A stretch of 64,000 bases of DNA from Polyangiales bacterium (lineage in GTDB: Bacteria; Myxococcota_A; Polyangia; Polyangiales; Polyangiaceae): the NCBI GenBank assembly GCA_038231275.1, contig JBBRLQ010000027.1, forward strand, positions 32,001 through 96,000. The letters are read 5' to 3'. The notes under the pieces are model-generated. The model worked only from the letters and a program-made list of their open reading frames with translations. It had not been told where the DNA came from and made no database searches. Shown here one piece after another: positions 4,933-62,234 of the stretch (position 1 is its first letter; each line of letters begins with the position of its first letter). The translations under genes were made by a program, and so were the position numbers.

Positions 4933-6195
4933 ATGGATCGCATCCCCCACGTCGTGATCGTCGGCGCCGGCTTCGGCGGCCTCACTGCTGCAAAGGCGAT
5001 GGGAGGCATGCGCGTGCGCGTCACAGTCGTCGACCGAACCAACCACCACCTCTTCCAGCCCCTCCTCTACCAGGTCGCGATGGCCGGGCTCTCCCCTGCG
5101 GAGATCGCGCAGCCGGTTCGGTCGATCCTCTCGCCGCAGGAAAATACGCGCGTCGTGCTCGCGGAGGTCGCCGGCGTCGATCTCGCGGGGCAAGACGTCC
5201 TGCTTACCGACGGCGCGAGCCTCGCGTACGACTACCTCGTCCTCGCCACCGGCGCGAAGACGGCGTATTTCGGGCACCCGGAGTGGGAGCGATTCGCCCC
5301 CGGCTTGAAGGCGCTCGACGACGCGGTGGAGATTCGAAGGCGCGTGCTCACGGCCTTCGAGATGGCCGAACGCGAGGAGGACGAGGCGCGGCGGCGCGAG
5401 CTGCTCACGTTCGTCGTGATCGGCGCCGGCCCCACCGGAGTCGAGATGGCCGGCGCGCTATCCGAGCTGGCACGCAAGACGATCACTGACGATTTTCGGG
5501 CGATCCGCCCAAGCGAGGCGCGCGTCATCCTCGTCGAGGGGGGCGACCGCGTCTTGCCCGCGATGCCGACCGATCTGTCCGAGCGAGCGCGCGAGCAGCT
5601 CGCCGAGATCGGCGTCGAGGTCCGGCTCGGGATGCGCGTGACGAACATCGACGCGCACGGCGTCGAGCTGGGCGCCGAGCGTCTGACGTCTGCGACCGTC
5701 GTGTGGGCGGCCGGCGTCGAGGCCACGCCGCTCACCGCGACGCTCGGAGTGCCGCTCGACAAGATGGGCCGCGTTCTCGTCGGCCGCGATCTCGCGCTAC
5801 CCGGTCACCCCGACGCCTTCGCGATCGGCGACATGGCGCGTTTCGAGCAAGACGGCGCGCCGCTCCCCGGCATCAGCCCGGTCGCGATGCAGCAGGCGCG
5901 CTTCGTCGCCGAGCTCATCGCCCGCGAGGAGAAGAGCCAGACGCGGCTCGAGTTCCGCTACCACGACAAAGGCTCGATGGCGACGATCGGCCGCTCGCGC
6001 GCGGTGGCCCAGACGGGCAAGATTCACCTCACCGGCTTCATCGCGTGGCTCGCGTGGCTCGTGGTCCACATCTGGTACCTGATCGGCTTCCGTAGCCGCC
6101 TCGTCGTGCTCATCACCTGGGCGTGGTCGTACCTGACCTACCGCCGCGGCGCGCGCCTCATCACCGCTCGCACGTGGGAGCCACATTCGCGATAG
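4933..6195 (+). CDS. ndh: Type II NADH dehydrogenase (FAD-dependent oxidoreductase)
   Basis: GAGFGG, HLFQPLLYQVA, GAGPTGVEMAG, FAIGD and YHDKGSMATIGR motifs. Confidence 0.93.
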   Translation: MDRIPHVVIVGAGFGGLTAAKAMGGMRVRVTVVDRTNHHLFQPLLYQVAMAGLSPAEIAQPVRSILSPQENTRVVLAEVAGVDLAGQDVLLTDGASLAYDYLVLATGAKTAYFGHPEWERFAPGLKALDDAVEIRRRVLTAFEMAEREEDEARRRELLTFVVIGAGPTGVEMAGALSELARKTITDDFRAIRPSEARVILVEGGDRVLPAMPTDLSERAREQLAEIGVEVRLGMRVTNIDAHGVELGAERLTSATVVWAAGVEATPLTATLGVPLDKMGRVLVGRDLALPGHPDAFAIGDMARFEQDGAPLPGISPVAMQQARFVAELIAREEKSQTRLEFRYHDKGSMATIGRSRAVAQTGKIHLTGFIAWLAWLVVHIWYLIGFRSRLVVLITWAWSYLTYRRGARLITARTWEPHSR

Positions 6196-6225
6196 TCGGC
6201 GCGCGACGTCACTCGTGAGCGCCGT

Positions 6226-8127
6226 CTACCAGCCGCATTTTTCGCCCTTGATCTGATCCTTCAGCCACCCGCGAAGTGGCGCGAAGTACTCGAGCAGCGC
6301 CGTCGCATCGGCCCTGGTCTCGCCGGGGCTCAAGGTCGAAAGCGCCTCCGGCCACGGCTTGCTCGCGCCGAGCGACAGCATCGCGGAGAGGCGCTTGCCC
6401 GCCTCTTTGTTGCCGTAGATGGAGCACTTATCGAGTGGCCCAGTGTGCCCCGCCGCCTTGCAGAGCGCGCGGTGGAACTGAAATTGGTAGATGAGCGCGA
6501 GGAAGTAGCGGAGGTACGGCGTGCTCGACGCGACGTGGTACTTCGCGGCCGGATCGAAATCGGCTTCGCTGCGAGGGGCGGGAGGGGCGACGCCCTGGTA
6601 CTTCGTGCGGAGCGCCCACCACGTCTCGTTGTAGCGCGCCTTCGGCACCTTGCCGGCGAGGACGTCCCAGCGCCACTTGTCCACGACGGGGCCGAAGGGC
6701 AAAAACGACACCTTCGACATCGCCATCTTCATCTGCTGGATCAGGAGCGCCTTGTCGTTCGCGGGCAGCTGATCGATGAGGCCGAGGTTCTTGAGGTACT
6801 GCGGCGTGACGCTGAGGGCGAGCGTGTCGCCGATCCCCTCGTGGAAGCCGTCGTTCGCGCCGCCCTGGAAGAGCATCGGGCGCGTGTAATAGTGGTGGTA
6901 ATAGTAGTCGTGTCCGAGCTCGTGATGGATCGTGATGAGATCCTCCTCAGTCGGCGTGATGCACATCTTGATGCGCAGATCGTCGTTGTACTGAGGGTCC
7001 CACGCGCTCGCGTGGCACACGACGTCACGATCCTTGGGGCGCGTGAAGAGCGAGCGATCCCAGAAGGTGGCCGGTAGCTTGTCCATCCCCAGCGAGACGA
7101 AGAACGCCTCGCCCATCTGGACCATCTTGCGCGCGTCGACCTTCTTCTCGACGAGGCGCTTGCCGACGTCGAGGTTCGGCTGCCCTTTGTAGGGCTCGGT
7201 GATGTCCGAGATGTTGTTCCACTCCTGCGCCCACATGTTGCCGAGCAGGTGCGCCGGGATCGGCGCGTGCTCGGCGACCTTGTCCTTGCCGTATTTGTCG
7301 CGCAGGCGCGCGCGCGCGTAGCAGTGGAGCTCGTCATAGAACGGCTTCGTCTCTTGCCAGAGCCGCTCGACGTCGGCCTCGAGCTCGGCGGGCGTCATGT
7401 CGTAGCCGGCGCGCCACAGCTCGCCCATGTCGGCGAAGCCGATTTCCTTCGCGCCCTTGTTCCCCAGCTCGACGTAGCGCGCGAACTTGTCCTTCATCGC
7501 CGGCGCGACGGAGTGCCAGCCGGTCCACGCCTCGGTGAGCTCGTCGTAGTTCCGGCTCTTGGCGAGCGTCTTGCTCAGATCGTCGAGCGTGAGGCAGTTG
7601 CCGTTGAGGCGCTTCGGGCAGTACTTGCCCTTGCCGTAGGTGCTCGTCATCCACGATTGGATTTCGGCGAGCTCCCGGCGCTCGTTGGCGTCGCTCGGCG
7701 CGGGCACCGTCTGCGACGTGCGGAGGAGCGTCATCTGCCGCGCGAGATCGGCGGGCAGGTTCAGGTCCTTGTATCGGCGCGACGCGATGATGGCCTGCCC
7801 CGCGTACGCGCTCGTCGCCTCTTCCGCGGCGGCGGACAAGAGCTCGGTGTCGTCCGTGATGAAGTTCTGGTTCACCCATCCTGCGCGATCGCGGGCGGTC
7901 CAGAGGCGGCGGAGATCCTTGTCGACCCGCGTGAAGAACGCGGTGGCCTCCTCGACGGTCGGCGGTCCCTTCGCGGCCTCGCCAGGGAGCAAGCCGCCCT
8001 TCGCGCACTCGGGACACGCGGGCGCCACCGTCGGGACCGCCGGAGGAGGCGCAGTCTCGCCTCCGCAGGCGAGCGGGAGAAAGGGGATGGCAAACGCGAT
8101 TCCGAGTGCGGCGCTTCTGAGCTTCAT
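6226..8127 (-). CDS. M2 family peptidyl-dipeptidase (ACE-like zinc metallopeptidase), lipoprotein
   Basis: HHELGH and FHEGIGD zinc ligands, PAHLLGNMWAQ, VCHASAWD; start moved to MKLRSAALG (8127) with lipobox PLAC. Confidence 0.93.
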   Translation of the reverse strand: MKLRSAALGIAFAIPFLPLACGGETAPPPAVPTVAPACPECAKGGLLPGEAAKGPPTVEEATAFFTRVDKDLRRLWTARDRAGWVNQNFITDDTELLSAAAEEATSAYAGQAIIASRRYKDLNLPADLARQMTLLRTSQTVPAPSDANERRELAEIQSWMTSTYGKGKYCPKRLNGNCLTLDDLSKTLAKSRNYDELTEAWTGWHSVAPAMKDKFARYVELGNKGAKEIGFADMGELWRAGYDMTPAELEADVERLWQETKPFYDELHCYARARLRDKYGKDKVAEHAPIPAHLLGNMWAQEWNNISDITEPYKGQPNLDVGKRLVEKKVDARKMVQMGEAFFVSLGMDKLPATFWDRSLFTRPKDRDVVCHASAWDPQYNDDLRIKMCITPTEEDLITIHHELGHDYYYHHYYTRPMLFQGGANDGFHEGIGDTLALSVTPQYLKNLGLIDQLPANDKALLIQQMKMAMSKVSFLPFGPVVDKWRWDVLAGKVPKARYNETWWALRTKYQGVAPPAPRSEADFDPAAKYHVASSTPYLRYFLALIYQFQFHRALCKAAGHTGPLDKCSIYGNKEAGKRLSAMLSLGASKPWPEALSTLSPGETRADATALLEYFAPLRGWLKDQIKGEKCGW

Positions 8128-38719: not shown

Positions 38720-41709
38720 TCAGTTCGTCCAGTCGAACTCGACGACCGTGGTGGTCGTGTTCGGAACCACCATCTGGCGATTGCCCTGGCCGTTCAGCTC
38801 GAAGCGAACCGACTCGTTCTTGCCGACGACGCCCTTCCACTCGATGCGGGCGCCCTGCGGGAAGCTGGCGTGGCCGGTGTAGCGGAAGCGGCCTGCCGGG
38901 TCCGAGTCGGTCTGCGTGAGATCGAGCCCGGGGTCGGCGGCGCGCCAGTTGCTGAGCGGGTCCGGACCACCGAGCGATCCGATGCCCTGCGGCGGGGTCG
39001 TCTGGCCGAGCACGCGAAGCGCCTCGCTATTCGGATCGAACTGCGGCTCGTTGATGTCGGTGCGAATGGTGAACGTGATCTCACACTCGGGGACACGCGG
39101 GTTGTGCACTTGCCCAACCCACGCGTTGATGGCGTTGATGGCCGCGCCGTCCTGAATGAGCTTGAACTGCTGGAACGCCGACTGCGGCATCTGCGGCAGC
39201 GTGAGGCGCTGCGGATCGTTCGCGATCGGGAAGATCAGCTGGTGGAGGAGCACGTCCGCGCCGCTCGAGACCGACAGGTTCTGAACGAAGTCGTACTTGT
39301 CGAGATCGGTGTTGTTGTAGCGGTGGCAGCTGGAGCAATACGGCCCGATGAGCTTCGAGTAGAGGTCCACCTTGGACTGCTTGTACTGCGCGGAGACGCC
39401 GTCGGCGTTGTCGGTGAAGCTCTTGGGGATGTGGCGCGGATCGTCGTTCGAAATCGCGGGAGCCGCGCCGGTGGGGTACATCGAGCCGATGTAGTCGACG
39501 ATGGCCTGGGTCGTCGGGACGCCGTTGGCGAGGGGCTGCGTCGCGGTGCCGCGCACCTTCTGGTTCGTCGCGCGAATGATCTGGTTCAAGGCGAACCACT
39601 GCTGCTCGGCGTCGTCCTGCGTGACGGTCGGATGGCGCTTGAGCGCGGAGGGCTCGAACTCGCGGAAGATGGAGCCGACGTCGGCGCTGCCGGCGTAGGT
39701 GCCGCCGTGGCACGGCGTGCAGAGCGCGGGAGCGACCTTCGCGCCTTCCCCGTCGAGCACGGCGAAAGGCTGGATCGTGTGAGGCGCCTTGCCTCCGAAC
39801 ACGTAGAACCGCACCTGCCCGGTGGGGCTCAGGTTCATCGTCACGGTGCCGAGGTTGGTCTTCTCGTCGCCGAGCTGGTTCGGATCGGGCACCAGCGCGT
39901 TGCCCCTGCGCGGGTCGGAGTTCGGATCGTCCGTAGGCGGCCAGTTGGTGACGGCGCAGCCGCCGACGCCCGGCGAGATGTCCTTCGTGCACGACATCTG
40001 CCGCCAGAAGCCGAGATCCAGATCGTTCTTGTAGAGCGCGGTGATCTTGTCACCGGCCATGAACTGCGCCTTCCACTGGGCGAGCGTGAAGTCCGGCTCC
40101 TTGAACGCACCGAAGTCTTTCACGTCCTTGGGGACCTGCGCGGAGTTGATGCGGAACGCGCCGAGCTGCGGGACGTCGGGATTCGCGAGGACGAGGTACT
40201 CGAGCCCTTCCTGGAAGCCGAGGATGCCCTGCTTCGAGAGGAAGACGTACGAACGCGCGTTCGGATCCGGCAGGCGCGGGCACGAGCCGGGGACGACGCG
40301 GTAGATGCCGCCGTGGAAGCCGAGCGCGAGGATCTCGCCGGCCGAGTCGGTCTGAAAGCTCGTGATCATCTCGCCGTTGCCGATGCGCAACGGCGTGAGA
40401 GGGCCACCCGCGGCGCGGAGGTTCGCGGGCATCTTGGCGTTGTCGACCGTCGCGTAGACCTGCCCGTTCTGGAAGTCGGCGTAGACGAAGTGGCCGACGA
40501 GCGACGACATGCCCGACGCGCGGCCGCGGTATACGAAGCCGCCGGTGACCGACGAGGCGACGTAGCCGCTGGTGTTCTTGGTGAGCGGATCGTTCGGATC
40601 GGCGCGTGCGGGACCTCGATCATCGGATCGGTCAGCGGCTTGTCGGTGGCGCAGCGGTCCTTGCTCGCGTCGCACACGCCGAGCGGCGCGCCGAGGCAGT
40701 TGCCGAACTCTTTGCAGAACTGCTGGCGGTGGAGCGCCTCTTTGACGTTCCAGCCGTAGTTGTGGGCTTTTCGGACGATGTTGATCTCTTCGAACGCGTC
40801 CTGCCCGACCTCGGCCTCCCAGATGTCGACCTGGCCGTCGTGCTGATCGAAGTTCCAGCGCCAGGGGTTGCGGTGACCCCAGGAGTAGATCGTCGGTAGG
40901 CCACGCGGCGTCGTCGTGTTGCCGGTGACGACCGGCGGGAACTCGCCGCGGGGGCCGAACGGGTTGTCCTCGGGCGCGCCGAACTCGACGCCCTTCTGCG
41001 CGCGGGTCGCGGCGTCGAGGACGTCGATGCGGAGGAACTTGCCGAAGATGGTGTTCGTGTTCTGCGCGTTGCCGAGCGGGCCCTTCGCCTGCTCCGAGTC
41101 GCCGATGCTGATGTAGAGGAGCGGCACGCCCGTCACGCCGACCTCGGTCGGGTGGAAGTTCATCTGCCCGCCGTTGTGCTCGCTCGCCGGCTTGTTCGCG
41201 GAGAAGAGGATCTTCTCGGAGGCCCGGTCGAGCGTCTTGCCGCCATCCTTGCTCGAGAAGCGCGACATGCGCCACTGGTAGCCTGTGCCGTCGACGAACC
41301 CGTCGTACGTCACGAACACTTCGGGGACGCTCGGCCAGCTCGGGTGGATCGCGAGCCCGTTGATGCCGGGCTCGCGGTCGCCGCTGTTCACGCGATCGCG
41401 GATGTCGAGGAGGACGTCGGCGCTCTGCACGTCGTCGCGGTTGGGGAAGCTCTTGATGGTGCCGCCCTTCTCGGCGACGAACCACGTCGAGTCGTCGGGC
41501 GTGCGCACCAGCGTCGTCGGGATGACGAACTGGAGGTTCGCGAACGCGGGAGCGAGCCGGACGCCGCCGACCGGAGAGTTGCACGTCGTGTCCGCCGACT
41601 CCGAGGAGCCGTCCGGACCGCCGGAGCTCGAGCACGCGAAGCCGGACGCGGAGGCCGCGGCGACGCTCAGGGCGAGGACGGCGACGTGAAGCAAATGGCG
41701 GGGGTTCAT
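38720..41709 (-). pseudogene. Frameshifted (or mis-sequenced) lipoprotein: PQQ glucose/sorbosone dehydrogenase propeller + dihaem cytochrome c + CBM20-like domain, ~996 aa if repaired
   Basis: ORF 40366-41709 has lipobox GFAC and GSDH motifs (HNGG, GKFLRID, GHRNPWR, EEIN, NYGW) up to MIEVPH; the propeller continues (SVTGGFVYRG, YADF) in the frame of ORF 38720-41941; switch at ~40601-40606. Confidence 0.8.
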
Positions 41710-41839: not shown

Positions 41840-42025
41840 ACGCGGTAATTTTCTAAGTAAGGTGGTCTGAGGTATGACCAGGTGGTTTTTATGACACCTG
41901 GATGTACGCCGCGCCGCGTCAGGGGAGGGCGGCCGATCCACCCGCCTGACACCTCATGCCCGCGCACGTCGCAACCTGGGCCGTCGCCTTCCTTCGAGCC
42001 CGTCCGTGTGGGAAGCTCCGCGCAC

Positions 42026-43168
42026 GTGCAGCGCGTCCAACAGATCCGCGTTCCATTCGACTATCCGGTGGTCTTCACGCGGGGCGCGCTCGACGAGGGC
42101 AACACGGCGCTCGCGGACGTCATCGCGCGTCGTGAGCCGGAGCGACGCCACCGCGCGCTCTTCGTGATCGACGACGGGCTCCTCGCGGCGACGCCCGGCC
42201 TCGGCGACGCGGTCGCTCGTTACGCGCGCGCGCACGATGCGCGTCTGACGCTGAGCGGCGAGCCGCTCGTGGCGCCCGGCGGAGAGCGCGCGAAGAACGA
42301 GCACGAGCACACTGACACGGTCCTGGCGCGCATCGAGAAGGACAAGCTCGATCGCCACGCGTTCGTCGTCGCGATCGGCGGCGGCGCGATGCTCGACATG
42401 GTCGGGTACGCGGCGGCGATCGCCCACCGAGGGATCCGCGTCGTTCGGGTGCCGTCGACGGTGCTCGCGCAAGCAGACAGCGGCGTCGGCGTGAAGTGCG
42501 GCGTGAACCGGTTCGGCAAGAAAAACTTTCTCGGGGCCTTCGCGCCGCCCTTCGCGGTCGTGTGCGACGCCGCGATGCTCGAGACGTTGCACGTGCGCGA
42601 TCGTCGCGCGGGCATGGCCGAGGCCGTGAAGGTCGCGCTCGTGAAGGACGCCGGGATGTTCGAGTGGATCGGCGCCAACGCGGGGCGCCTGGCCGCGGGA
42701 GACCGCGCCCTCGTCGGCGAGCTCGTGAAGAAGAGCGCGGACAAGCACCTGGACCACATCGCGACCGGCGGCGATCCCTTCGAGATGGGCAGCGCACGGC
42801 CGCTCGATTTCGGCCACTGGGCTGCTCACAAGCTCGAGTCGCTCACCGCGAACGCGCTGAAGCACGGCGAGGCGGTGGCGATCGGGCTCGCGCTCGACGC
42901 GATCGTCAGCCAAAAGATGCGGCTGTGCGACGGCAGCGTCCCCGATCGCACGATCGCGACGTTGCGCGCGCTGGGCTTTCGCTTGTGGGACGACGCGCTG
43001 GCGCGCCCGGAGCGCGTGCTCGCCGGCCTCGAAGAGTTCCGCGAGCACCTCGGCGGAGAGCTGACGGTCACGATGCTCACGGAAGCCGGAGTCGGGCGCG
43101 AAGTACACCACGTCGACGAGGGCCACGTTCGCGACGCGATCGCGCGCCTGCACGAGGAGGATCGATGA
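42026..43168 (+). CDS. eboD: 3-dehydroquinate synthase-like sugar-phosphate cyclase of the ebo cluster
   Basis: GGE.AKN, GGGAMLD, DSGVGVK, EAVKVAL, GSARPLDFGHWAAHKLE, LEEFREHLGG; translationally coupled to eboE; GTG start inferred. Confidence 0.85.
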   Translation: MQRVQQIRVPFDYPVVFTRGALDEGNTALADVIARREPERRHRALFVIDDGLLAATPGLGDAVARYARAHDARLTLSGEPLVAPGGERAKNEHEHTDTVLARIEKDKLDRHAFVVAIGGGAMLDMVGYAAAIAHRGIRVVRVPSTVLAQADSGVGVKCGVNRFGKKNFLGAFAPPFAVVCDAAMLETLHVRDRRAGMAEAVKVALVKDAGMFEWIGANAGRLAAGDRALVGELVKKSADKHLDHIATGGDPFEMGSARPLDFGHWAAHKLESLTANALKHGEAVAIGLALDAIVSQKMRLCDGSVPDRTIATLRALGFRLWDDALARPERVLAGLEEFREHLGGELTVTMLTEAGVGREVHHVDEGHVRDAIARLHEEDR

Positions 43169-44319
43169 AGCTCGCCGCGCTCCCCGGAGCACCACACCTG
43201 ACGTACTGCACGAACATCCACCCTGGCGAGTCGTGGGCCGACGTGCACGAGGTGGTGCGGACGAAGGTGTGCGAGGTCAAGGCGAGGGTCTCTCCCGATG
43301 CACCGTTCGGCATCGGGTTGCGCCTCTCGGCGCGCGCCGCGGCGACCTTGGAAGAGCCGGCGGAGCTCGCGCGGTTCCGCGAGACACTGGACGGGGCGGG
43401 CCTCTACGTCTTCACGATCAACGGGTTCCCCTACGGCGATTTCCACGGGACGCGCGTGAAGGAGACCGTGTACCGACCGGACTGGACCGAGTCGTTACGT
43501 GTAGATTACACGCTCCGACTGGCACGCCTCCTCGCGGCGCTCCTCCCGGCGGACGTGCGGACGGGCAGCGTGAGCACCGTGCCGCTCGGCTTTCGTGCGG
43601 CCGGCGCGGCGGGCGTTCGGGGCGCGGCGATGGCGGACGCGCTGCGGCGGGTCGCGCGGGAGCTGCGCGACCTCGCGCGCCAGACGGGGCGACACGTGAC
43701 CCTCGCGCTAGAGCCCGAGCCGGCGTGCGCCCTCGAGACGACTACGGACGTCGTGCGCTTCTTCGAGGACGTGCTCTTCGCGCGCGCCGCGGCCGACGAA
43801 GGGATCGTGCGCGCGCACGTGGGGGTTTGCCTCGACGCGTGTCACGCCGCCGTCGGGCTCGAGGACCCCAAGGATGCCGTCACGCGGCTCTCTCGCGCGG
43901 GCATCACGATCGCGAAGATTCAGCTCACCAACGCGATCGAGGCGCGCGGACCGGAGGCGCTGGCGGCGCTCGCCCGCTTCGCCGAGGACACGTACCTGCA
44001 CCAGTGCGTCGTTCGCGGCCAAGACGGCAAGGTGACGCGCTACCTGGACCTGCCGGAGGCCTTGAAGCACGATCACGGAGCGGACGCCGTGCTCCGCACC
44101 CACTTCCATGTACCCATTTTCCTCGAGCGCCTCGGTGCGCTGAGCGGCACGCAGGGATTCTTGCGCGCGCTTCTCGCGCTCGTGAAGACGCGCGCGCTGA
44201 GCGAGCACCTCGAGGTCGAGACGTACACGTGGGACGTCCTGCCGGCGGAGTATCGACAGCCGAGCATGGTCGACGACATCGCCCGAGAGCTCACGTGGGT
44301 GCGCGAGGCGCTGGCGTGA
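43165..44319 (+). CDS. eboE: Metabolite traffic protein EboE (xylose isomerase-like TIM barrel)
   Basis: LTYCTNIHPGESW, GLRLS, TINGFPYGDFH..VKE.VY.PDW, LEPEP, RTHFHVP, HLEVETYTW. Confidence 0.92.
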   Translation: MKLAALPGAPHLTYCTNIHPGESWADVHEVVRTKVCEVKARVSPDAPFGIGLRLSARAAATLEEPAELARFRETLDGAGLYVFTINGFPYGDFHGTRVKETVYRPDWTESLRVDYTLRLARLLAALLPADVRTGSVSTVPLGFRAAGAAGVRGAAMADALRRVARELRDLARQTGRHVTLALEPEPACALETTTDVVRFFEDVLFARAAADEGIVRAHVGVCLDACHAAVGLEDPKDAVTRLSRAGITIAKIQLTNAIEARGPEALAALARFAEDTYLHQCVVRGQDGKVTRYLDLPEALKHDHGADAVLRTHFHVPIFLERLGALSGTQGFLRALLALVKTRALSEHLEVETYTWDVLPAEYRQPSMVDDIARELTWVREALA

Positions 44320-45176
44320 CCGCGCCGAGCAAGCTGACCGTCTATCTGCGCCTTGGACGCGTGTCGAACCTGCCGACGGTGTGGACCAACACACTCGCCG
44401 GCGCACTGCTCGGCGGCGGCGGGGGCGTCCTCCTGGGCATCCCGAAGCTCGTCGGCCTCGCCGCGACGATGTCGCTCTTCTACGTCGCGGGGATGTTCCT
44501 GAACGACGCGTTCGATCGCGAGATCGACGCGAAGGAGCGCCCCGCGCGGCCGATCCCGTCAGGTCATGTCCGCGCGAGCGAGGTGTTCTCGGTCGGGTTC
44601 GGCGCGCTCGGAGGCGGCGTGGGCCTCCTCTATTGGCAAGCGGGGCTCGTGGCGGCGCTCTTCGGCGTGCTCCTCGCTGGCAACATCGTGCTCTACGACG
44701 CGTGGCACAAGAACAACGCCCTGAGCCCCGTGCTCATGGGAGGGTGCCGTGTCCTCGTGTACTTCACCGCTGCGGTGGCGGTCGGCTCGCTCAACCTCGC
44801 GGTGATCGCCGGCGCGGGTGTCCTCTTCGCGTACCTCATCGGCCTCACGTATGTCGCGAAGATCGAGGGGAAGAGCGGCGCGGCGCTTTGGCCGCTCGGA
44901 TTTCTGGCGATCCCGTTCGTGAAGGCGGGTCTCTCGGCGTGGCGCGACGTCGTGTCATCCGTCTTGTTCGTCGCGCTGCTCGCCCTCGTCGTGCACGCGG
45001 TGCGGCTCGTGCGCGAGAAGAAGGCGATCGGCAAGGCGATCGTGGCGCTCCTCGCCGGGATCTCGATCCTCGACGCGCTGACGATCGCCGGCGCCGGTCA
45101 CGCAACGGCTGCGGTGGCGTCGACGTTCGGGTTCTTCGCGACGCGCGGGCTACAGCGCTGGGTGGCGGGAACGTGA
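44316..45176 (+). CDS. eboC: UbiA-family prenyltransferase of the ebo cluster
   Basis: LGRVSNLPTVW, GMFLNDAFD.EIDA.ERP.RPIPSG, LYDAWHK, MGGCR; multi-TM; GTGA overlap. Confidence 0.88.
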   Translation: MTAPSKLTVYLRLGRVSNLPTVWTNTLAGALLGGGGGVLLGIPKLVGLAATMSLFYVAGMFLNDAFDREIDAKERPARPIPSGHVRASEVFSVGFGALGGGVGLLYWQAGLVAALFGVLLAGNIVLYDAWHKNNALSPVLMGGCRVLVYFTAAVAVGSLNLAVIAGAGVLFAYLIGLTYVAKIEGKSGAALWPLGFLAIPFVKAGLSAWRDVVSSVLFVALLALVVHAVRLVREKKAIGKAIVALLAGISILDALTIAGAGHATAAVASTFGFFATRGLQRWVAGT

Positions 45177-45740
45177 GCCGGCCGCGCGCAGGTGCCGCGT
45201 GAGGACGACGAGCGCGGCCACGTTGAGCGCGCCGGCCGCGACGAGCACCTTCATGAGCGGCCCGCCGAGGAGCGCGTCCTTCGCGCCCCACGTGATGTCG
45301 AACGATCGACCCGGCGCCCAAAACCCCGCGTAGGTCGTCACCGTAAAGGCGCGACGCCAGAGCACGCCGAAGATCATCGCGAGGAGCAGCGTCCACCCGA
45401 CGGCAAAGACCGCGGTGAGCGTCCGCCCGCGCCCAGCGGAGATCGCGCGCGCGCCGAGCAGGTATCCCGCGACGTAGAGAGCGACAAGGGCGACCGTCTG
45501 CGCCGCGCCCATGGCAAGGAGCCCCGCCGGCGTCGGCTCAAAGTCGACGACGTACATCGTCTGCCACGCCGGACCCAGCGCCAGCGCGGCCATCGCGCTC
45601 GGGACGTAGAGCGCGCCGGTGACGAGCATCCCCTCGCGAAACGACGGCTCCACGAAGCGCACGGCGGCGCGCGTGTCCGATCGCAACGCCGCGCAGAACG
45701 CGCCGAGCGTGAGCTCGTAGGCGAGATCGAACGAGATCAC
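45150..45740 (-). CDS. Membrane protein, hypothetical
   Basis: About five hydrophobic segments; divergent from the GMC operon. Confidence 0.6.
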   Translation of the reverse strand: MISFDLAYELTLGAFCAALRSDTRAAVRFVEPSFREGMLVTGALYVPSAMAALALGPAWQTMYVVDFEPTPAGLLAMGAAQTVALVALYVAGYLLGARAISAGRGRTLTAVFAVGWTLLLAMIFGVLWRRAFTVTTYAGFWAPGRSFDITWGAKDALLGGPLMKVLVAAGALNVAALVVLTRHLRAAGSRSRHPAL

Positions 45741-45829
45741 GGGGTCGCCTCGGCGCGCATTCGGGCCCTTCTTACACCGAATTCAGCGCCCGGGTCACAG
45801 GTGACTTGTACTACCGTACCGGCCTTCGG

Positions 45830-47479
45830 ATGAGCGGCAGCAAGAGGAGGCGCGTGGCGGTGATCGGGTCCGGCTTCGGCGGCGCGATCATGGCCTGCCG
45901 CCTGGCCGAATCGGGCCTCTTCGACGTCCAGGTCCTCGAGCGCGGCGCCCGCTACGGACGCGGCGAATTTCCGCGGCTCCCCGACGCGCTCCCCAAGGCG
46001 TTCTGGTCGCCGGAGACCGGCGCGTTCGGACCGCTGGAGTACCGCTCGTTCGTGCGCTCGCGCGTCGATGTCCTGACCGCGGCCGGCGTCGGCGGAGGCT
46101 CCCTCATTTACTCGAACGTCCTCTACCGGATGCCCGACGCGTTCTTCGACGCGTGGCCCGGCGGCATTCGTCGTGCGAGGCTCGAACCGTTCTACGATCG
46201 CGCGATCGCGATGCTCGAGGCGACGCCGTATCCGGTCGCGCGCGACGACTGGCCGTATTGGCACGGCACCCCGAAGGCGCGAGCGCTGGCGGAGGCCGCT
46301 GCGAAGATCGCCGCGAGCGCGGACGGTCACCCGCACGTCGCGCTGACGTGGCCGCCCCTCGCGATCCAATTCGGACCCGAGCCCGGAAGAGAGCTGACGA
46401 ACGCGCAAGGCGTCGCGCAGACGACCTGCGTGATGTGCGGCGAATGCAACATCGGCTGCAACACCGGCGCGAAGAACACGCTGGACTTGAACTACCTCGC
46501 GCGCGCGGAGAAGTACGGCGCGAGGGTGAGGCCGAATGCCCACGTGCGCAGCGTGGCGCGACGCGCAAAGGAGACCGCTGGCTTCGACCTCCACGTCGCC
46601 GATCCAAGACGAGGCCCAGCCGACGCCGGATCGACCGAGTCGTTCGATCTGGTGGTCCTCGCCGCCGGTTCGCTCGGATCGACCGAGCTCGTGCTCGGCA
46701 TGCGCGGCGACGTCGAGGTACCTGCGGCGGCCGGGACGCGGTGGTCTCCGAACGGCGACATCCTCGGCTTCGTGCTCGGCACCGACTGGCCGCTGGAGCC
46801 CTCGTCGGGCCCCGTCATCACCGGCGCGCTGCACGTCGAGTCCGCGCGCTACCCCGACGGCTTCCCCGCGGGCGCGTGGATCGAGGACGGCGGCGTACCG
46901 AAATTCCTCGCGTGGTCTGCTCGCAGCCGAGCCACGCGCGTAGGCGGCGTCGTCGGCGCCGTGCGCGGCCTCGTCGACTACCTCGCGCGCATGGCGACCA
47001 CGAAGGGCTCCGCGAACGTCGGCGGCGACGTCGGCGCCGTCCTTTTCGGGACCGGTGGCTTCTCCGACGACACGCTGCTCATGCTCGGAATGGGCCGCGA
47101 TCGCGCGCGCGGGACGTTGTCGCTCGAGGGCCCCGATCGCAGGGTCGACCTGAACTGGAGCCCCGGTGAAGGCGAGCTCCACTACCAGCGCGCGCGCAGG
47201 GTCATGGACCGCGTCGCCGAGGCGCTCGGCGGCACGTTCGTCGAGAACCCCCTCGACGATATCCTCTCGCGCTACGTCTCGGTCCACCCGGTGGGCGGCT
47301 TGCCGATGGGCGACGACGCGAGCACGGGCGCCGTCGACGCGCGGACCGCCGAGCTCTTCGGCTGCAAAGATCTCTTCGTGGTCGATGGCAGCATTCTCCC
47401 GGAGGCCGTCGGCCCCAACCCTTCCCTCACGATCGCGGCGCTCGCCGAGATGTACGCCGAGCGGTTGTGCCATGCGTGA
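45830..47479 (+). CDS. GMC family oxidoreductase (cholesterol oxidase-like)
   Basis: IGSGFGG, VLERG, GVGGGSLIYSNV, CVMCGECNIGC..GAKNTLDLNYL, HPVGG, VVDGS..P..VGPNPSLTI. Confidence 0.9.
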   Translation: MSGSKRRRVAVIGSGFGGAIMACRLAESGLFDVQVLERGARYGRGEFPRLPDALPKAFWSPETGAFGPLEYRSFVRSRVDVLTAAGVGGGSLIYSNVLYRMPDAFFDAWPGGIRRARLEPFYDRAIAMLEATPYPVARDDWPYWHGTPKARALAEAAAKIAASADGHPHVALTWPPLAIQFGPEPGRELTNAQGVAQTTCVMCGECNIGCNTGAKNTLDLNYLARAEKYGARVRPNAHVRSVARRAKETAGFDLHVADPRRGPADAGSTESFDLVVLAAGSLGSTELVLGMRGDVEVPAAAGTRWSPNGDILGFVLGTDWPLEPSSGPVITGALHVESARYPDGFPAGAWIEDGGVPKFLAWSARSRATRVGGVVGAVRGLVDYLARMATTKGSANVGGDVGAVLFGTGGFSDDTLLMLGMGRDRARGTLSLEGPDRRVDLNWSPGEGELHYQRARRVMDRVAEALGGTFVENPLDDILSRYVSVHPVGGLPMGDDASTGAVDARTAELFGCKDLFVVDGSILPEAVGPNPSLTIAALAEMYAERLCHA

Positions 47480-58887: not shown

Positions 58888-60264
58888 TCACTCGAACAGG
58901 TGATCGAGGATGATGCGCTTCACGTCCGTGACGTGGGCACCCTCCTTCGGCAAGAGCGACGGCTCCGTCGAGAGGAGCACCGGCTGCTCGTCGGGCTTCG
59001 TGCTCGGGACGCCGTGCGAGCCCTTCACGAGCGACGCGTCGAGCGGGATGACGTCCATCAAGTAGCGAAAGCCGAGCATCTTCTGCGCGAGGCGGAAGGC
59101 GACCTTGAGCTGCGGGATCGGGAGCGCCGGATCGACGAAGAGCTCGACGGGGTCGTAGCCAGGCTTCCGGTGGATGTCGACGGTGCGTGCGTAGTCGGGG
59201 GCTTTGGCGTCGTCGTTCCAGAAGTAGTACGTGAACCACGCGTCGCGATCGGCGAGCAGCACCAAATCCCCGCCGCGCTCGTGGTGAATGGCCCGGGCTT
59301 TCTGGCCTTCTGCGTCGAGCACCTCGGCGACGCCCGGCAGCTTCGCGAGGAGCGCCTTCACCTCGGGCAGGCGCGTGGCGTTCTTCACGTACACGTGCGC
59401 GATCTGGTGATCGGCGACGGCGAACGCCTCGCTGCCGCCGCAGTCGAGCTTCTCGGTGCCGCGCTCACGCCGCACGCGAAGGAGGCCGGCGTCGCGGAGC
59501 GCGCGGTTCGGATGCACGGCGCGCGACACCTTGGTAATGACGTACTCGGACACGATCATCACGCGCGCGCCGGCCTTCGTGAAGTGATCAACGAGATCGC
59601 CGACCACGTCGTCGACCTCGCGGAGGGCCTTGGCGATGCGCGGATCGCCGGGCCCGAAGCGCTGCAGGTCGTAGTCGAGGTGCGGCAGGTACACGAGCGA
59701 GAGGGTCGGCTTCTTCTCGTCGAAGACGCGCTTGGACGCCTCGGCGATCCACTGCGTCGAGCGAATGCCGGCGCGCGGCCCCCAGAAGTCGAAGAGCGGA
59801 AACGCGCCGAGCGACGCGTTGAGCTCGTCACGCAAGTCCTCGGGCTCGGTGTAGATGTCCGGGATTTTCAGCCCGTCGGCGGGGTACATCGGCCGCGGGG
59901 TCACCGCGAAATCGGCCGACGAGTACATGTTGAACCACCAGAACATCTTCGCGCACGTCACGCTGGCGTCGCGTTTGCGCGCGGTCTCCCAGACCTTCTC
60001 GCCGATGGTGATGCGGTTCACCTGACGCCAGAGGAGGACCTCGGCGAGATCCTTCCAGTACCAACCGTTGCCCACGACGCCGTGCTCGGAGACCGGAAGA
60101 CCCGTGAGCATCGACGCTTGCACACTGCATGTAACCGCCGGAAGCAGCGTCGTGAGCGGCCGCGCGCCGTCCTGCGCCTTCGCGAGGCGCGCGAGGTTCG
60201 GCGTGTGCTCGCCGATGAGCCCGGTGGCGAGCCCGACGACGTCGAGGACGACGGTGCGCTTCAA
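58888..60264 (-). CDS. eboF: Alkaline phosphatase/nucleotide pyrophosphatase family protein of the ebo cluster
   Basis: LDVVGL, PAVTCSVQ, YLPHLDY.LQRFG, SEY, AVADHQIAH, DIHRKPGYDP.ELF, KGSHG; TTG start. Confidence 0.9.
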   Translation of the reverse strand: MKRTVVLDVVGLATGLIGEHTPNLARLAKAQDGARPLTTLLPAVTCSVQASMLTGLPVSEHGVVGNGWYWKDLAEVLLWRQVNRITIGEKVWETARKRDASVTCAKMFWWFNMYSSADFAVTPRPMYPADGLKIPDIYTEPEDLRDELNASLGAFPLFDFWGPRAGIRSTQWIAEASKRVFDEKKPTLSLVYLPHLDYDLQRFGPGDPRIAKALREVDDVVGDLVDHFTKAGARVMIVSEYVITKVSRAVHPNRALRDAGLLRVRRERGTEKLDCGGSEAFAVADHQIAHVYVKNATRLPEVKALLAKLPGVAEVLDAEGQKARAIHHERGGDLVLLADRDAWFTYYFWNDDAKAPDYARTVDIHRKPGYDPVELFVDPALPIPQLKVAFRLAQKMLGFRYLMDVIPLDASLVKGSHGVPSTKPDEQPVLLSTEPSLLPKEGAHVTDVKRIILDHLFE

Positions 60265-60274
60265 TGGGCCCGTC

Positions 60275-61156
60275 TCACGTGCGCGCGGGCGTTTGGCCGC
60301 GGAGGACCGAGTTGCCCTCGAAGAGCTCCGCTTGGTCGTACGACGCGTTCGACGCGAGATCGGCCGCGACGATGCGCCCGGTTTGGCCGAAGAACGCGAT
60401 CGGGTTCTTCCACACGATCGTCTCGATGTCGGCCGCGACGATGCCGGCGTCCTTCATCGCGATGGCGGTCTTCGGCACCTTGAGCGGATCGCTGACGCCC
60501 CAATCGGCGGCGCTGTTCACGATGATGCGCGACGGCCCGTACTTCTTCACGAGAGCGGCCATGCGCGGCTCGTCCATCTTCGTGTTCGGGTAAATCGAGT
60601 GCCCTGCCCAGCACCCCGTCGCGAGGACGAGCGGCAAGGTCTCCTCGTTGTTGTGGTCGATGAGGACGCGCTCTTCGGCGAAGCGCTGCTCCTTCACGAC
60701 GGCGAGGCTCCGCTCGGTGCCGCGCTTCTTGTCGCGGTGCGGGGTGTGGATGAGGACCGGCAGATCGAATTTCTTCGCGAGCTCGAGCTGCGCGGCGAAG
60801 AACTTCTCCTCGGCCGGCGTCTGATCGTCGAAGCCGATCTCGCCGACCGCGACGACGCCGTCCTTTCCGAGGTAGTGCGGCATCAAGTCCAGCACGCCCT
60901 GGGCGACGTTCGGGTTGTTCGCCTCCTTCGGGTTCAGGCCGATGGTGCAGAAGTGCGTGATGCCGAATTGGCTCGCGCGGAAGCGCTCCCAGCCGAGGAG
61001 GGCCTGGAAATAGTCCTCGAACGTGCCGACCTTCGTGCGCGGCTGGCCGAGCCAGAACGCGGGCTCGATGATCGCGCGGATGCCCGCCTTCGCCATCGCC
61101 TCGTAGTCGTCGGTCGTGCGGCTCGTCATGTGGATGTGCGGGTCGAACAGCTTCAC
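60275..61156 (-). CDS. eboB: TatD-family hydrolase of the ebo cluster
   Basis: FDPHIHMTSRTTDDY, EPAFWLGQPRT, GLNPKEAN, HTPHRDK, DHNNE, NSAADWG.SDPL.VPKT; GTG start overlapping the eboA stop. Confidence 0.9.
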   Translation of the reverse strand: MKLFDPHIHMTSRTTDDYEAMAKAGIRAIIEPAFWLGQPRTKVGTFEDYFQALLGWERFRASQFGITHFCTIGLNPKEANNPNVAQGVLDLMPHYLGKDGVVAVGEIGFDDQTPAEEKFFAAQLELAKKFDLPVLIHTPHRDKKRGTERSLAVVKEQRFAEERVLIDHNNEETLPLVLATGCWAGHSIYPNTKMDEPRMAALVKKYGPSRIIVNSAADWGVSDPLKVPKTAIAMKDAGIVAADIETIVWKNPIAFFGQTGRIVAADLASNASYDQAELFEGNSVLRGQTPART

Positions 61157-61734
61157 GAGGCCACCTCTTTCATGATTCCTGACAAGTCCGCGGGAACCGG
61201 CCTTCCCGCGGCGCGACGCTCGGCGGCGAAGTCGGCGGCCATCCGCGCGAGCTCGTCGTTCTTCCGCGCGGCGAGACCGACGATGCGCGCGAGGGCCACG
61301 CCGTTGAATGACGCCTTCAGCACCATCTGGTTGAAATTCAGCTCGGGGAAGAAGCGCTCGGGGTACGTGTTCTCGCAGGCGATCGCCTCGAAGATCGTGA
61401 GCACGTTGGTGCGACATGCCTCGATGGCGAGCGGCAGGAATCGCTCAGGATCGGCGAGGAGCGGGAGCGCCTTCAGCACGGCCTGGCGCTCACGGTTGTC
61501 GCCGCGATCGTAGAGCTCCTCGGGCGACACCGACGCCGCGCCGCGAACCAAGAGCGCCGCGCGCGCGACCTCGTCGGTGCCCCACGTGCCGCGGCCCGGA
61601 ACGACGCACGGCTCCTTGCCCACCGCGCGCGCGGCGCCGGAGAACGCCGCGAGGAGCGCGAGGCGATCGTCGGCGGCCACCGACACGACCCACTCGTTCG
61701 CCGTCGCCGGCAGCGCGTCGAGGAAGACCGTCAT
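61153..61734 (-). CDS. eboA: EboA domain protein
   Basis: W..DEVAR.LL, Y..GD..ERQAVL.ALP, EACRTN...F.AIA..N.YP..F....FNQMVLK, ER.AAGR.VP. Confidence 0.88.
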   Translation of the reverse strand: MTVFLDALPATANEWVVSVAADDRLALLAAFSGAARAVGKEPCVVPGRGTWGTDEVARAALLVRGAASVSPEELYDRGDNRERQAVLKALPLLADPERFLPLAIEACRTNVLTIFEAIACENTYPERFFPELNFNQMVLKASFNGVALARIVGLAARKNDELARMAADFAAERRAAGRPVPADLSGIMKEVAS

Positions 61735-61796
61735 CGAAGGCCGAACGTAGCACGCGGACCGGCGTGCGGCGGCGGTCGGTGGTAGAGAGATCGGCC

Positions 61797-62234
61797 ATGG
61801 ATCTCCCCGCGGACTACGACAAGGCGCTCGAGCTCATTTTGGCGGATTTCAAGGCCCAGATCGGCACGATCCACGTCCTCGAAGCGGACGGGATGCTCCA
61901 CTTGCGCGCGCACTCGCGAGGGATTCCGGAGCCGGTCTTGGCGGCGAGCCGAGTCATCCCGATCGGCAAGGGGATCGCGGGCCTCGCCGTCGAGCGCAAG
62001 GCTCCCGTGAATCTGTGCAATCTACAAACGGACAAGAGCGGCGACGCGCGGCCGGGGGCGAAGGCGACGGGCGCGATGGGATCGCTCTGCGTCCCGATGC
62101 TCGACGGCGAGCGCGCGGTGGGTGCGCTCGGCATCGCGGCGATGGGCGAACGAAACTTCACGAAGGAAGAAGAGGATCGGCTCCTCGACCTGGGCCGGCA
62201 GCTGGCCTCGCGCGCCTCCCCTCGCGCCTCCTGA
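61797..62234 (+). CDS. Stand-alone GAF domain protein
   Basis: IPIGKGIAGLA..R.PV..CNLQ, SLCVPM...VGALGI, F..EE..LL; start MDLPADY. Confidence 0.85.
   Translation: MDLPADYDKALELILADFKAQIGTIHVLEADGMLHLRAHSRGIPEPVLAASRVIPIGKGIAGLAVERKAPVNLCNLQTDKSGDARPGAKATGAMGSLCVPMLDGERAVGALGIAAMGERNFTKEEEDRLLDLGRQLASRASPRAS

Follow-up and report, generated by a model that had tools for sequence, protein, structure and literature searches.

The DNA analysed here, the window, is a 64,000-nucleotide stretch (G+C ~68%) of contig JBBRLQ010000027.1 from a Polyangiales bacterium (GenBank assembly GCA_038231275.1), and the gene under study lies on its minus strand at 41709-38720. Joined across one frameshift, the gene encodes a signal peptide with a lipoprotein cysteine, followed by a glucose/sorbosone dehydrogenase (GSDH)-type propeller, a two-haem domain and a C-terminal carbohydrate-binding module (CBM) of family CBM20. 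The product, predicted to be one exported lipoprotein of ~995 residues, is probably a sugar dehydrogenase of the quinohaemoprotein kind that has its own electron relay and an anchor for alpha-glucan. Its parts, in order of translation, were assigned as follows.

41632..41709, minus strand: signal peptide and lipoprotein cysteine (MNPRHLLHVAVLALSVAAASASGFA followed by C, Cys26), then a Ser/Gly/Asp-rich linker, from the translation.
40603..41631, minus strand: first part of a GSDH-type beta-propeller (sGDH/Asd-like, of the pyrroloquinoline quinone (PQQ) type), in frame 0, from Pfam and PDB matches.
40598..40608, minus strand: frameshift with one C missing (CAC CGC GCC in a same-genus orthologue, CACGCGCC in the window).
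40286..40600, minus strand: last propeller blade(s), in the -1 frame (DPNDPLTKNTSGYVASSVTGGFVYRG...IYRVVPG), aligning with the propeller end of full-length homologues.
39086..40285, minus strand: middle two-haem domain, ~390 residues, from an AF2 (AlphaFold2) model and conservation.
38723..39085, minus strand: C-terminal CBM20 of a divergent subtype, from Pfam, PDB profile, Foldseek and VIA, ending at the stop 38720-38722.

Frame 0 opens at ATG 41709 with MNPRHLLHVAVLALSVAAASASGFACSSS..., has the codon of Cys26 at 41632-41634 (N-terminus in translation, MNPRHLLHVAVLALSVAAASASGFAC-SSSGG), and remains protein-like through ...DPMIEVPHA (MIEVPHA 40603-40623). From 40600 the protein-like reading shifts to the -1 frame (DPNDPLTKN...; DPNDPLTKNTSGYVASSVTGGFVYRG) and continues to the stop at 38720-38722, and frame 0 beyond the break ends out of frame at a stop at 40366-40368. 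The 995 residues contain only two CxxCH motifs, CTPCH (39707-39721) and CSSCH (39323-39337), and CEITFTI (39065-39085) opens the C-terminal domain. The initial annotation of this DNA had described a gene with one frameshift and these features, and all were found where it had placed them, exactly so for CTPCH, CSSCH and the C-terminal start. Of the surface anchoring proposed at the outset, a lipoprotein-type N-terminus is what the sequence shows, a surface location being putative. The lipoprotein N-terminus was judged from the translation: the lipobox in the window, S-G-F-A-C, is non-canonical with Gly at -3, several homologues have a canonical L/V-x-G/A-C box (LVGC, VVGC, FLVGC), and a Cys follows the hydrophobic N-terminus in at least 90% of the rows of a 24-row alignment, in which the row of the window does not reach the N-terminus.

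For the propeller, Pfam GSDH (PF07995; CAZy AA12-like) matched the N part at 87.9 bits (cut-off 25), bearing out the propeller type first proposed; homologues scored 72-154 bits, with matches reaching profile position ~323-331, and NCBIfam gave only a weak, sub-threshold PQQ-dehydrogenase subfamily match on the window protein. Sequence matches of the first part in the PDB were 3a9g (4.9e-11) and sGDH 1c9u (2e-7). SEHNGG (41167-41184) is aligned to the D-H of sGDH (..DHQSG..) and GHRNPWR (40858-40878) to GHRNPQG of sGDH, and both motifs are kept across the family. In sGDH, these motifs contain the catalytic base, His144, and two residues in contact with PQQ or substrate, Arg228 and Asn229. The propeller of the window is not complete in one frame, with a 1-nt deletion before the last blade(s), and is complete in an intact orthologue (P0001) and in a genome of the same genus (G401). 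In two homologues (P0012 and L021:846-3593), an AMPK1_CBM domain (glycogen-binding, CBM48-type) was found inside the propeller, besides the C-terminal CBM20.

The middle domain has a helical start, a beta-rich part ending in CTPCH, and a helical part with CSSCH, and further contains MPQ (39182-39190, an invariant Met-Pro) and a Cys pair (MSCTKD 39980-39997, GGCAVTNW 39941-39964). Conservation was counted over the non-gap rows of a 135-sequence alignment of this domain, giving 135/135 for the first CxxCH, 134/134 for the second, 134/134 for the Met-Pro ~45 residues past the second, 125/131 and 129/132 for two more conserved Met, and 129/131 for the Cys pair. Since both CxxCH motifs are invariant in homologues, these features lie far beyond chance, and the check on motif conservation proposed at the outset came out positive. 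An AF2 model of the middle domain alone (39095-40246) reached pLDDT 95.1 and pTM 0.93, and an AlphaFold model of the middle domain with the CBM reached pLDDT 92.5.

A classical cytochrome c family was looked for in the middle domain and not found by Pfam/NCBIfam, PDB profile, Foldseek and VIA-wide searches: no Pfam or NCBIfam family and no PDB match was found in the profile searches, Foldseek returned nothing at E <= 1e-3 (best E 0.27; 2je2 at rank 4, E 0.36), and VIA-wide returned no Z >= 5. In the ESM Atlas, only 'hypothetical protein' clusters were matched, one with 24% PF13442. As judged by these searches, the middle region is an undescribed two-haem domain outside the recognised cytochrome families, with covalent haem predicted from CxxCH; of the earlier term 'dihaem cytochrome c', the two invariant CxxCH motifs hold, and the cytochrome label gives way to a new ~390-residue domain of no recognised cytochrome family. 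The motifs around the second haem, CxxCH followed by Met-Pro, suggest a His/Met site of class-I type. The first haem sits at the end of the beta-rich part, which in the model faintly resembles cytochrome P460/c'-beta, the best VIA-wide rows for this part being 8brk (Z 4.9), 6hiu (4.9), 2je3 (4.0), 7s5o (3.8) and 6amg (3.7), with alignments of 107-125 residues. Six-coordination of haem 1 is possible through the two conserved Met of that part.

An exhaustive HMMER search over 1.84 billion representatives matched 552 proteins at E <= 1e-3, of which 117 reached E <= 1e-10. Since the matches were mostly confined to query residues ~165-500, the middle region constitutes a separate domain family. A Pfam scan of 91 representatives (30 at E <= 1e-3, 61 at E <= 1e-6) showed as partners GSDH with or without CBM_20, Lysyl_oxidase (5), Kelch (1), PA14, and CarboxypepD_reg repeats, the Lysyl_oxidase and Kelch fusions all among the set of 30; no Pfam family was found in 38/61. 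The two-haem domain stands behind Lysyl_oxidase in large proteins with PKD/P_proprotein repeats (P0059, P0060, P0062, P0065, P0068; L023:8984-12493), and is fused to Kelch repeats in P0083 and to PA14 in P0028/P0061/P0088. These fusions to other domains of the extracellular quinone/copper oxidoreductase type support a putative relay role.

The same observations bear on another division of labour, in which the propeller would be a non-catalytic, HHIP-like binding domain and the haem domain would itself be catalytic (P460/c'-type, or peroxidase-like and fed by the His/Met haem). The GSDH family has non-enzymatic members such as HHIP, the five P460/c'-beta entries (Z 3.7-4.9) are the sole structural neighbours of the haem 1 part, and 38/61 representatives combine the two-haem domain with no recognisable enzyme domain. 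The window gene, however, retains the catalytic His and PQQ-contact Arg/Asn motifs of sGDH, the structural scores are under the level that the tool calls meaningful, and a six-coordinate haem 1, which the two conserved Met could give, would speak against catalysis there. We regard this arrangement as quite unlikely.

The C-terminal domain is a CBM20 fold by structural modelling, as had been expected from its sequence. VIA of the C-terminal 121 residues gave 2vn7 (glucoamylase, Z 13.8), 2z0b (13.5), 8x8k (STBD1, 12.6), 1cqy (12.0) and 7czj (11.7), with rmsd to CBM20s of 1.8-2.2 over 94-102 residues, and Z 7-8.5 for CBM41/26/25; Foldseek against CBM20 gave E 2e-6 to 3e-4, and the family profile matched 7czj (6.8e-7), CGTases (1.2e-6) and 1ac0 (2.6e-5) in the PDB. 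The Pfam CBM_20 (PF00686) match of the window covers profile positions 8-93 of 97 with E 1.4e-4, and its 22.0 bits fall slightly short of the 23.3 cut-off; most homologues scored 34-73 bits. In the 24-row alignment, the module of the window retains Trp, Lys and Asn in the segments LSNW, EWK and GNR, respectively, and differs from canonical members by Phe for the Trp of xWE, Tyr for the Trp of vWxG, and an insertion, as a subfamily trait; the sugar-binding residues of glucoamylase are presumably W543, K578, W590 and N595, and W563. Canonical CBM20 in most members, together with AMPK1_CBM in some, gives the family a strong link to alpha-glucan-binding modules. Targeting to alpha-glucan, as the initial annotation had it, is thus safest for the family at large, as judged by the canonical CBM20s, and is less secure for the subfamily of the window, whose CBM20 is divergent and has its closest relative in the genome on a GH28-like enzyme; the ligand there may differ.

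Homologues were collected by a word-indexed search with the 626-residue second part as query, which found 55 proteins. By precomputed PF07995 and PF00686 assignments, GSDH and CBM_20 occur in one protein in 26/55, PF07995 only in 10/55, CBM_20 without GSDH in 2/55, and no recognised family in 17/55. Seven of the PF07995-only proteins (P0001, P0003-P0006, P0008, P0009; 985-1017 residues, 52-91% identity) are full-length members of the subfamily of the window, in which CBM_20 goes uncalled because the divergent CBM falls under the Pfam cut-off. The homologues are single genes of 930-1017 residues with the same architecture, and not pairs of separate genes, and a 24-member alignment shows a continuous protein with N-terminal Cys, propeller, middle domain and CBM. 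An intact orthologue, P0001, has 994 aa and 91% identity, and an intact paralogue lies on contig C43 of the source genome (L002:385-3393, plus strand; 1003 residues, 33% identity; GSDH 100.5 bits, CBM_20 59.8 bits, canonical). Source labels of homologues, where given, are soil metagenome or Myxococcales/Myxococcaceae. The gene family is rare among the species-representative genomes searched: 1/400 other genomes across the phylum matched at E <= 1e-10, and with the middle domain alone; 1/2 other genomes of the same genus matched; and in the taxonomic order to which a distant carrier belongs, 5/147 genomes matched, with the carrier counted in.

The break in the reading frame was located by comparison with the same-genus genome G401, whose orthologue is an uninterrupted 1034-codon open frame with 87% identity to the window gene. 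A single C is missing in the window, because G401 reads GAGGTCCCGCACCGCGCCGAT at the break where the window reads GAGGTCCCGCACGCGCCGAT; intact orthologues across the junction read EVPHRADPNDPL. The dN/dS against G401 is 0.23 before the break and 0.17 after it, which indicates purifying selection for most of the divergence and a break that is recent or artefactual. Programmed frameshifting was considered and is not indicated, since no slippery heptamer lies at the site; the orthologues are also uninterrupted. By these comparisons, the copy in the window has probably either become a pseudogene recently or been altered by an assembly error; only in the latter case could the source genome yield the full-length protein.

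There is a real though lesser chance that the organism itself has an undamaged gene and that the absence of the C is an error of assembly or consensus. There is one lesion only, both halves being otherwise under purifying selection; the source genome is a draft of 164 contigs, 94% complete; and the C was lost from a pair of neighbouring Cs. Set against this, the break site is without a long homopolymer, and a second gene with the same CBM subtype is also broken, by a substitution-type in-frame TAG that is atypical for indel error. This second gene encodes a GH28-like beta-helix lipoprotein (contig C3 of the source genome, L003:1498-3261, minus strand), in which the TAG (L003:2755-2757) interrupts an otherwise high-GC3 coding sequence, and its C-terminal ~124 residues are 51% identical to the CBM20-like module of the window. 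It is the only other gene of the source genome with this CBM subtype, which is also carried by another GH28-like protein, P0115, and its broken state favours real decay of the window gene. The gene is probably dead in the source genome, and its value therefore lies in the family and not in the locus.

For the family, a sugar dehydrogenase with its own relay and anchor would work as follows. The six-bladed propeller of the sGDH/Asd type would bind PQQ and oxidise a sugar hydroxyl, the likeliest site, by analogy with sGDH and Asd, being the anomeric C1 of glucose or of malto-oligosaccharide reducing ends; the ~390-residue domain, with its two putative covalent c-type haems, would take the two electrons singly from reduced PQQ and hand them to an external acceptor; and the C-terminal CBM20 would keep the enzyme on alpha-glucan. 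For six-bladed PQQ propellers with adjacent or fused cytochromes, transfer from sugar to PQQ to cytochrome has been proposed in the available text of a preprint (bioRxiv 10.64898/2026.07.10.737718).

Several points weigh against this assignment. For every member of the family it rests on sequence and models, and reducing ends are scarce in intact starch. Pfam Cytochrome_CBB3, Cytochrom_C and Paired_CXXCH_1 match the middle domain at E 0.07-0.4 only, and its P460-like similarity in the models is weak (Z <= 4.9) and serves as a lead. The CBM_20 score of the window falls under the Pfam cut-off, and within the genome its module is most similar (51% identity) to one that belongs to a GH28-like enzyme, so that the subtype may bind a non-starch ligand; PF00686 was matched in the source genome only in the paralogue and the GH28-like gene, and no amylase carrying CBM20 was found there. 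No match to PqqC (TIGR02111) was found in the 94%-complete source genome, control genomes being silent as well, and the best match to PqqE (TIGR02109) was 102 bits against a cut-off of 381. PQQ would therefore be scavenged, or the cofactor differs; if PQQ is the cofactor, the organism probably imports it, as other non-producers do. To these are added the broken state of the window copy and a linkage to ebo genes in two lineages, described below, which points to a different substrate.

The enzyme could also be imagined as a bacterial stand-in for cellobiose or pyranose dehydrogenase, with a lytic polysaccharide monooxygenase (LPMO) on the bound polysaccharide as acceptor. The same three-part logic is found in the fungal enzyme CcPDH, which activates LPMOs according to the part of PMC5960967 available, and analogous Teredinibacter proteins have been discussed likewise in the accessible text of PMC12055684. 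No match to PF03067 (LPMO_10) was found, however, in the 94%-complete source genome, while a control genome set gave one, and no LPMO gene was found in any annotated flank, the AA13 type not having been searched for. Because no LPMO_10 gene was found, the idea is unsupported in the source genome, and we consider it very unlikely. Starch-active LPMOs (AA13) are known from fungi.

The nearest comparators in design are fungal CcPDH (AA8 cytochrome b - AA12 - CBM1) and cellobiose dehydrogenase (CDH; AA8 - AA3_1 - CBM1), which likewise combine in one secreted chain a sugar dehydrogenase, an outward electron-carrying haem domain and a polysaccharide-binding module. The AA12 domain of CcPDH is a six-bladed PQQ propeller, as predicted here, according to the portions of PMC4332668 and PMC6881789 available. 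The window family departs from both fungal enzymes in several respects: its haem would be c-type and present in two copies, the ~390-residue domain that carries it is unrelated to theirs and follows the propeller, its CBM belongs to CBM20 (alpha-glucan) where theirs is CBM1 (cellulose), and the protein is a predicted bacterial lipoprotein known from its genes. Since the C-terminus has the CBM20 fold, the CxxCH motifs are conserved and the homologues are single genes, the three-part architecture and the analogy to fungal CDH/PDH at the level of design stand, and the earlier interpretation as a whole is partly supported.

In Teredinibacter turnerae, TERTU_3803 and TERTU_2567 combine CBM, GSDH and cytochrome c, were found in cellulose-grown secretomes, are uncharacterised, and have already been likened to CcPDH (PMC12055684, in the text available). 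The initial remark that the three-part architecture was not recognised as characterised in bacteria agrees with this, and the combination itself had already been pointed out. The Teredinibacter proteins, compared by description only, differ in being gammaproteobacterial, in their cellulose setting and in a recognisable cytochrome c, whereas the haem domain of the window family matches no family model and its CBM is CBM20. Soluble PQQ glucose/aldose dehydrogenases (sGDH of A. calcoaceticus, 1C9U; the P. aerophilum enzyme, 3A9G; YliI of E. coli, 2G8S) share a homologous propeller (E 5e-11 to 1e-4) and the catalytic His and GHRNP motif found in the window gene; sGDH-type enzymes, unlike the window family, are single-domain proteins using free acceptors, with no fused haem domain or CBM. 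Quinohaemoprotein dehydrogenases (type II alcohol dehydrogenases; amine dehydrogenase with its dihaem subunit) pass electrons from a quinone to covalently linked or tightly bound haem c. Their propellers are eight-bladed or their folds unrelated, their cytochrome c domains are of the classical kind, and a PDB profile search revealed no homology to the middle domain. Cytochrome P460/c'-beta supplied the only solved folds aligning, with weak scores, with the beta-rich part bearing the first CxxCH, and these are ~150-residue homodimeric single-haem proteins, whereas the part in the window is embedded in a larger two-haem domain.

A preprint survey describes ~22,000 six-bladed PQQ propellers, of which some contain haem motifs or have a cytochrome next to them, and the portion of its main text available makes no mention of CBM, starch or Myxococc (bioRxiv 10.64898/2026.07.10.737718). 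Literature searches on 'sorbosone dehydrogenase' with CBM20, or on PQQ with CBM20 and cytochrome, turned up no account of the architecture and returned only fungal genome papers. The elements that are new are the two-haem domain family, the pairing with CBM20, and the ebo linkage.

In the window, the gene is divergent from eboD-E-C across ~170 bp and has ruvB downstream. The neighbouring features are as follows, those of the second ebo block (58888..61833) being given as open frames and not as called starts.

41882-43168, plus strand: eboD-like sugar-phosphate cyclase (NF004852, 517 bits; Pfam DHQ_synthase).
43165-44319, plus strand: EboE (NF035939, 463.7 bits, cut-off 250).
44340-45176, plus strand: EboC-like UbiA prenyltransferase (Pfam UbiA 52.6 bits; NF035940 98 bits, under the cut-off of 250).
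45713-47476, plus strand: GMC-family FAD oxidoreductase, just past the eboC-like gene (best NCBIfam match cholesterol oxidase, 170.6 bits, far under its cut-off).
58888-60453, minus strand: phosphodiesterase/eboF-like (Pfam Phosphodiest 208.9 bits).
60275-61444, minus strand: TatD/eboB-like (Pfam TatD_DNase 54.9 bits).
61153-61833, minus strand: eboA (NF035938, 155.1 bits, cut-off 50, at 61180-61572).

A complete set of the eboA-F type is thus present, split into D-E-C and A-B(TatD)-F(phosphodiesterase) blocks ~14 kb apart, and the GMC oxidoreductase may be part of an extended ebo cluster. By NCBIfam, the gene under study falls outside the six ebo families, a neighbour and not a member. G401 has the same ebo arrangement; an extra Ser/Thr kinase-TPR gene (L017:10316-12988, plus strand) lies there between the orthologue and ruvB, and is absent from that position in the window. 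In an unrelated metagenome-assembled genome, a homologue of 33% identity (L012) lies in the order eboA-TatD-[gene]-DHQS-like-GH31-EboE-phosphodiesterase, EboC being encoded on the other strand. Of this order, G437, a relative of that genome, retains [gene]-DHQS-like-GH31, and L027 has TatD-[gene]. In a third lineage (L030/L029), an inositol-phosphate synthase and an aldo-keto reductase lie beside the gene, with a divergent GH31. GH31, an alpha-glucosidase/alpha-xylosidase family, is found next to homologues in two lineages (L012:10560-13610, L048:149-3211, L030:3731-8047), and the source genome has four GH31 genes, one on the same contig ~8.5 kb past the window end (G000:C27:104511-105431). 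Ebo-type neighbours were found at 5/13 loci with readable flanks, representing 2 independent lineages, and no ebo genes were found in the available flanks of L049, L050, L024, L025, L026 and the own-genome paralogue L020, the last being ebo-free within ~8 kb each side. At L025, a multihaem cytochrome c gene (5677-6708, plus strand; Cytochrome_C554/C7 matches) lies two genes downstream of the homologue, and its product is a possible electron acceptor.

We regard the ebo linkage as real, though unexplained. The ebo cluster has been tied to the algal morphogen thallusin, built from a cyclitol, with an inositol route replacing eboD in Actinomycetota, in the part of a preprint available (bioRxiv 10.64898/2026.05.21.724671). 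It is possible, if rather doubtful, that the enzyme is an accessory of a thallusin-type, cyclitol-derived ebo pathway. That it would oxidise, outside the cytoplasm, a cyclitol from the ebo pathway, the alpha-glycoside of this cyclitol or an intermediate related to it is likewise tentative, and that GH31 and the CBM would serve cyclitol chemistry and not starch harvesting is similarly speculative. The divergent eboD-E-C beside the gene in the window and G401, the L012 homologue within an ebo operon, the partial orders in G437 and L027, the ebo-type neighbours at 5/13 readable loci, and the inositol-phosphate synthase of L030/L029, taken together with the inositol route in the available text of the thallusin preprint, all favour such a role. 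It is opposed by the restriction to two independent lineages, by the six loci with ebo-free flanks, by CBM20 and CBM48 being alpha-glucan modules, and by adjacency not being function. Neither ebo paper names such a gene in the text available: PQQ, sorbosone, cytochrome and dehydrogenase are absent from that of bioRxiv 10.64898/2026.05.21.724671, and PQQ, sorbosone, 'cytochrome c' and 'glucose dehydrogenase' from that of PMC5133447, which left extra genes inserted in ebo clusters unanalysed.

As a broader and tentative proposition, which we think unlikely as a whole, the middle region would be a new portable relay (a P460-like beta part and a class-I-like helical part) used by soil bacteria on varied exported quinone or copper oxidoreductases (PQQ propeller, lysyl oxidase, Kelch-type), and the PQQ-dihaem-CBM20 enzyme would at the same time be a recurrent ebo accessory together with GH31. 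If both were true, a pathway of the algal-morphogen type would be linked to extracytoplasmic oxidation of alpha-glucosides or cyclitols.

In fungi, sugar oxidation is wired to extracellular acceptors via enzymes with their own cytochrome and polysaccharide anchor, and research on biomass degradation and bioelectrochemistry still asks whether real bacterial equivalents exist. The quinohaemoprotein family put forward here would represent a bacterial solution that pairs c-type haems with a starch-type anchor, and would be an obvious choice for sugar biosensors based on direct electron transfer. Through this family an unannotated domain, predicted to carry two haems (552 cluster representatives at E <= 1e-3), comes to light on several kinds of exported oxidoreductase, and the ebo linkage of the family provides a concrete lead on a pathway whose chemistry is only now emerging.

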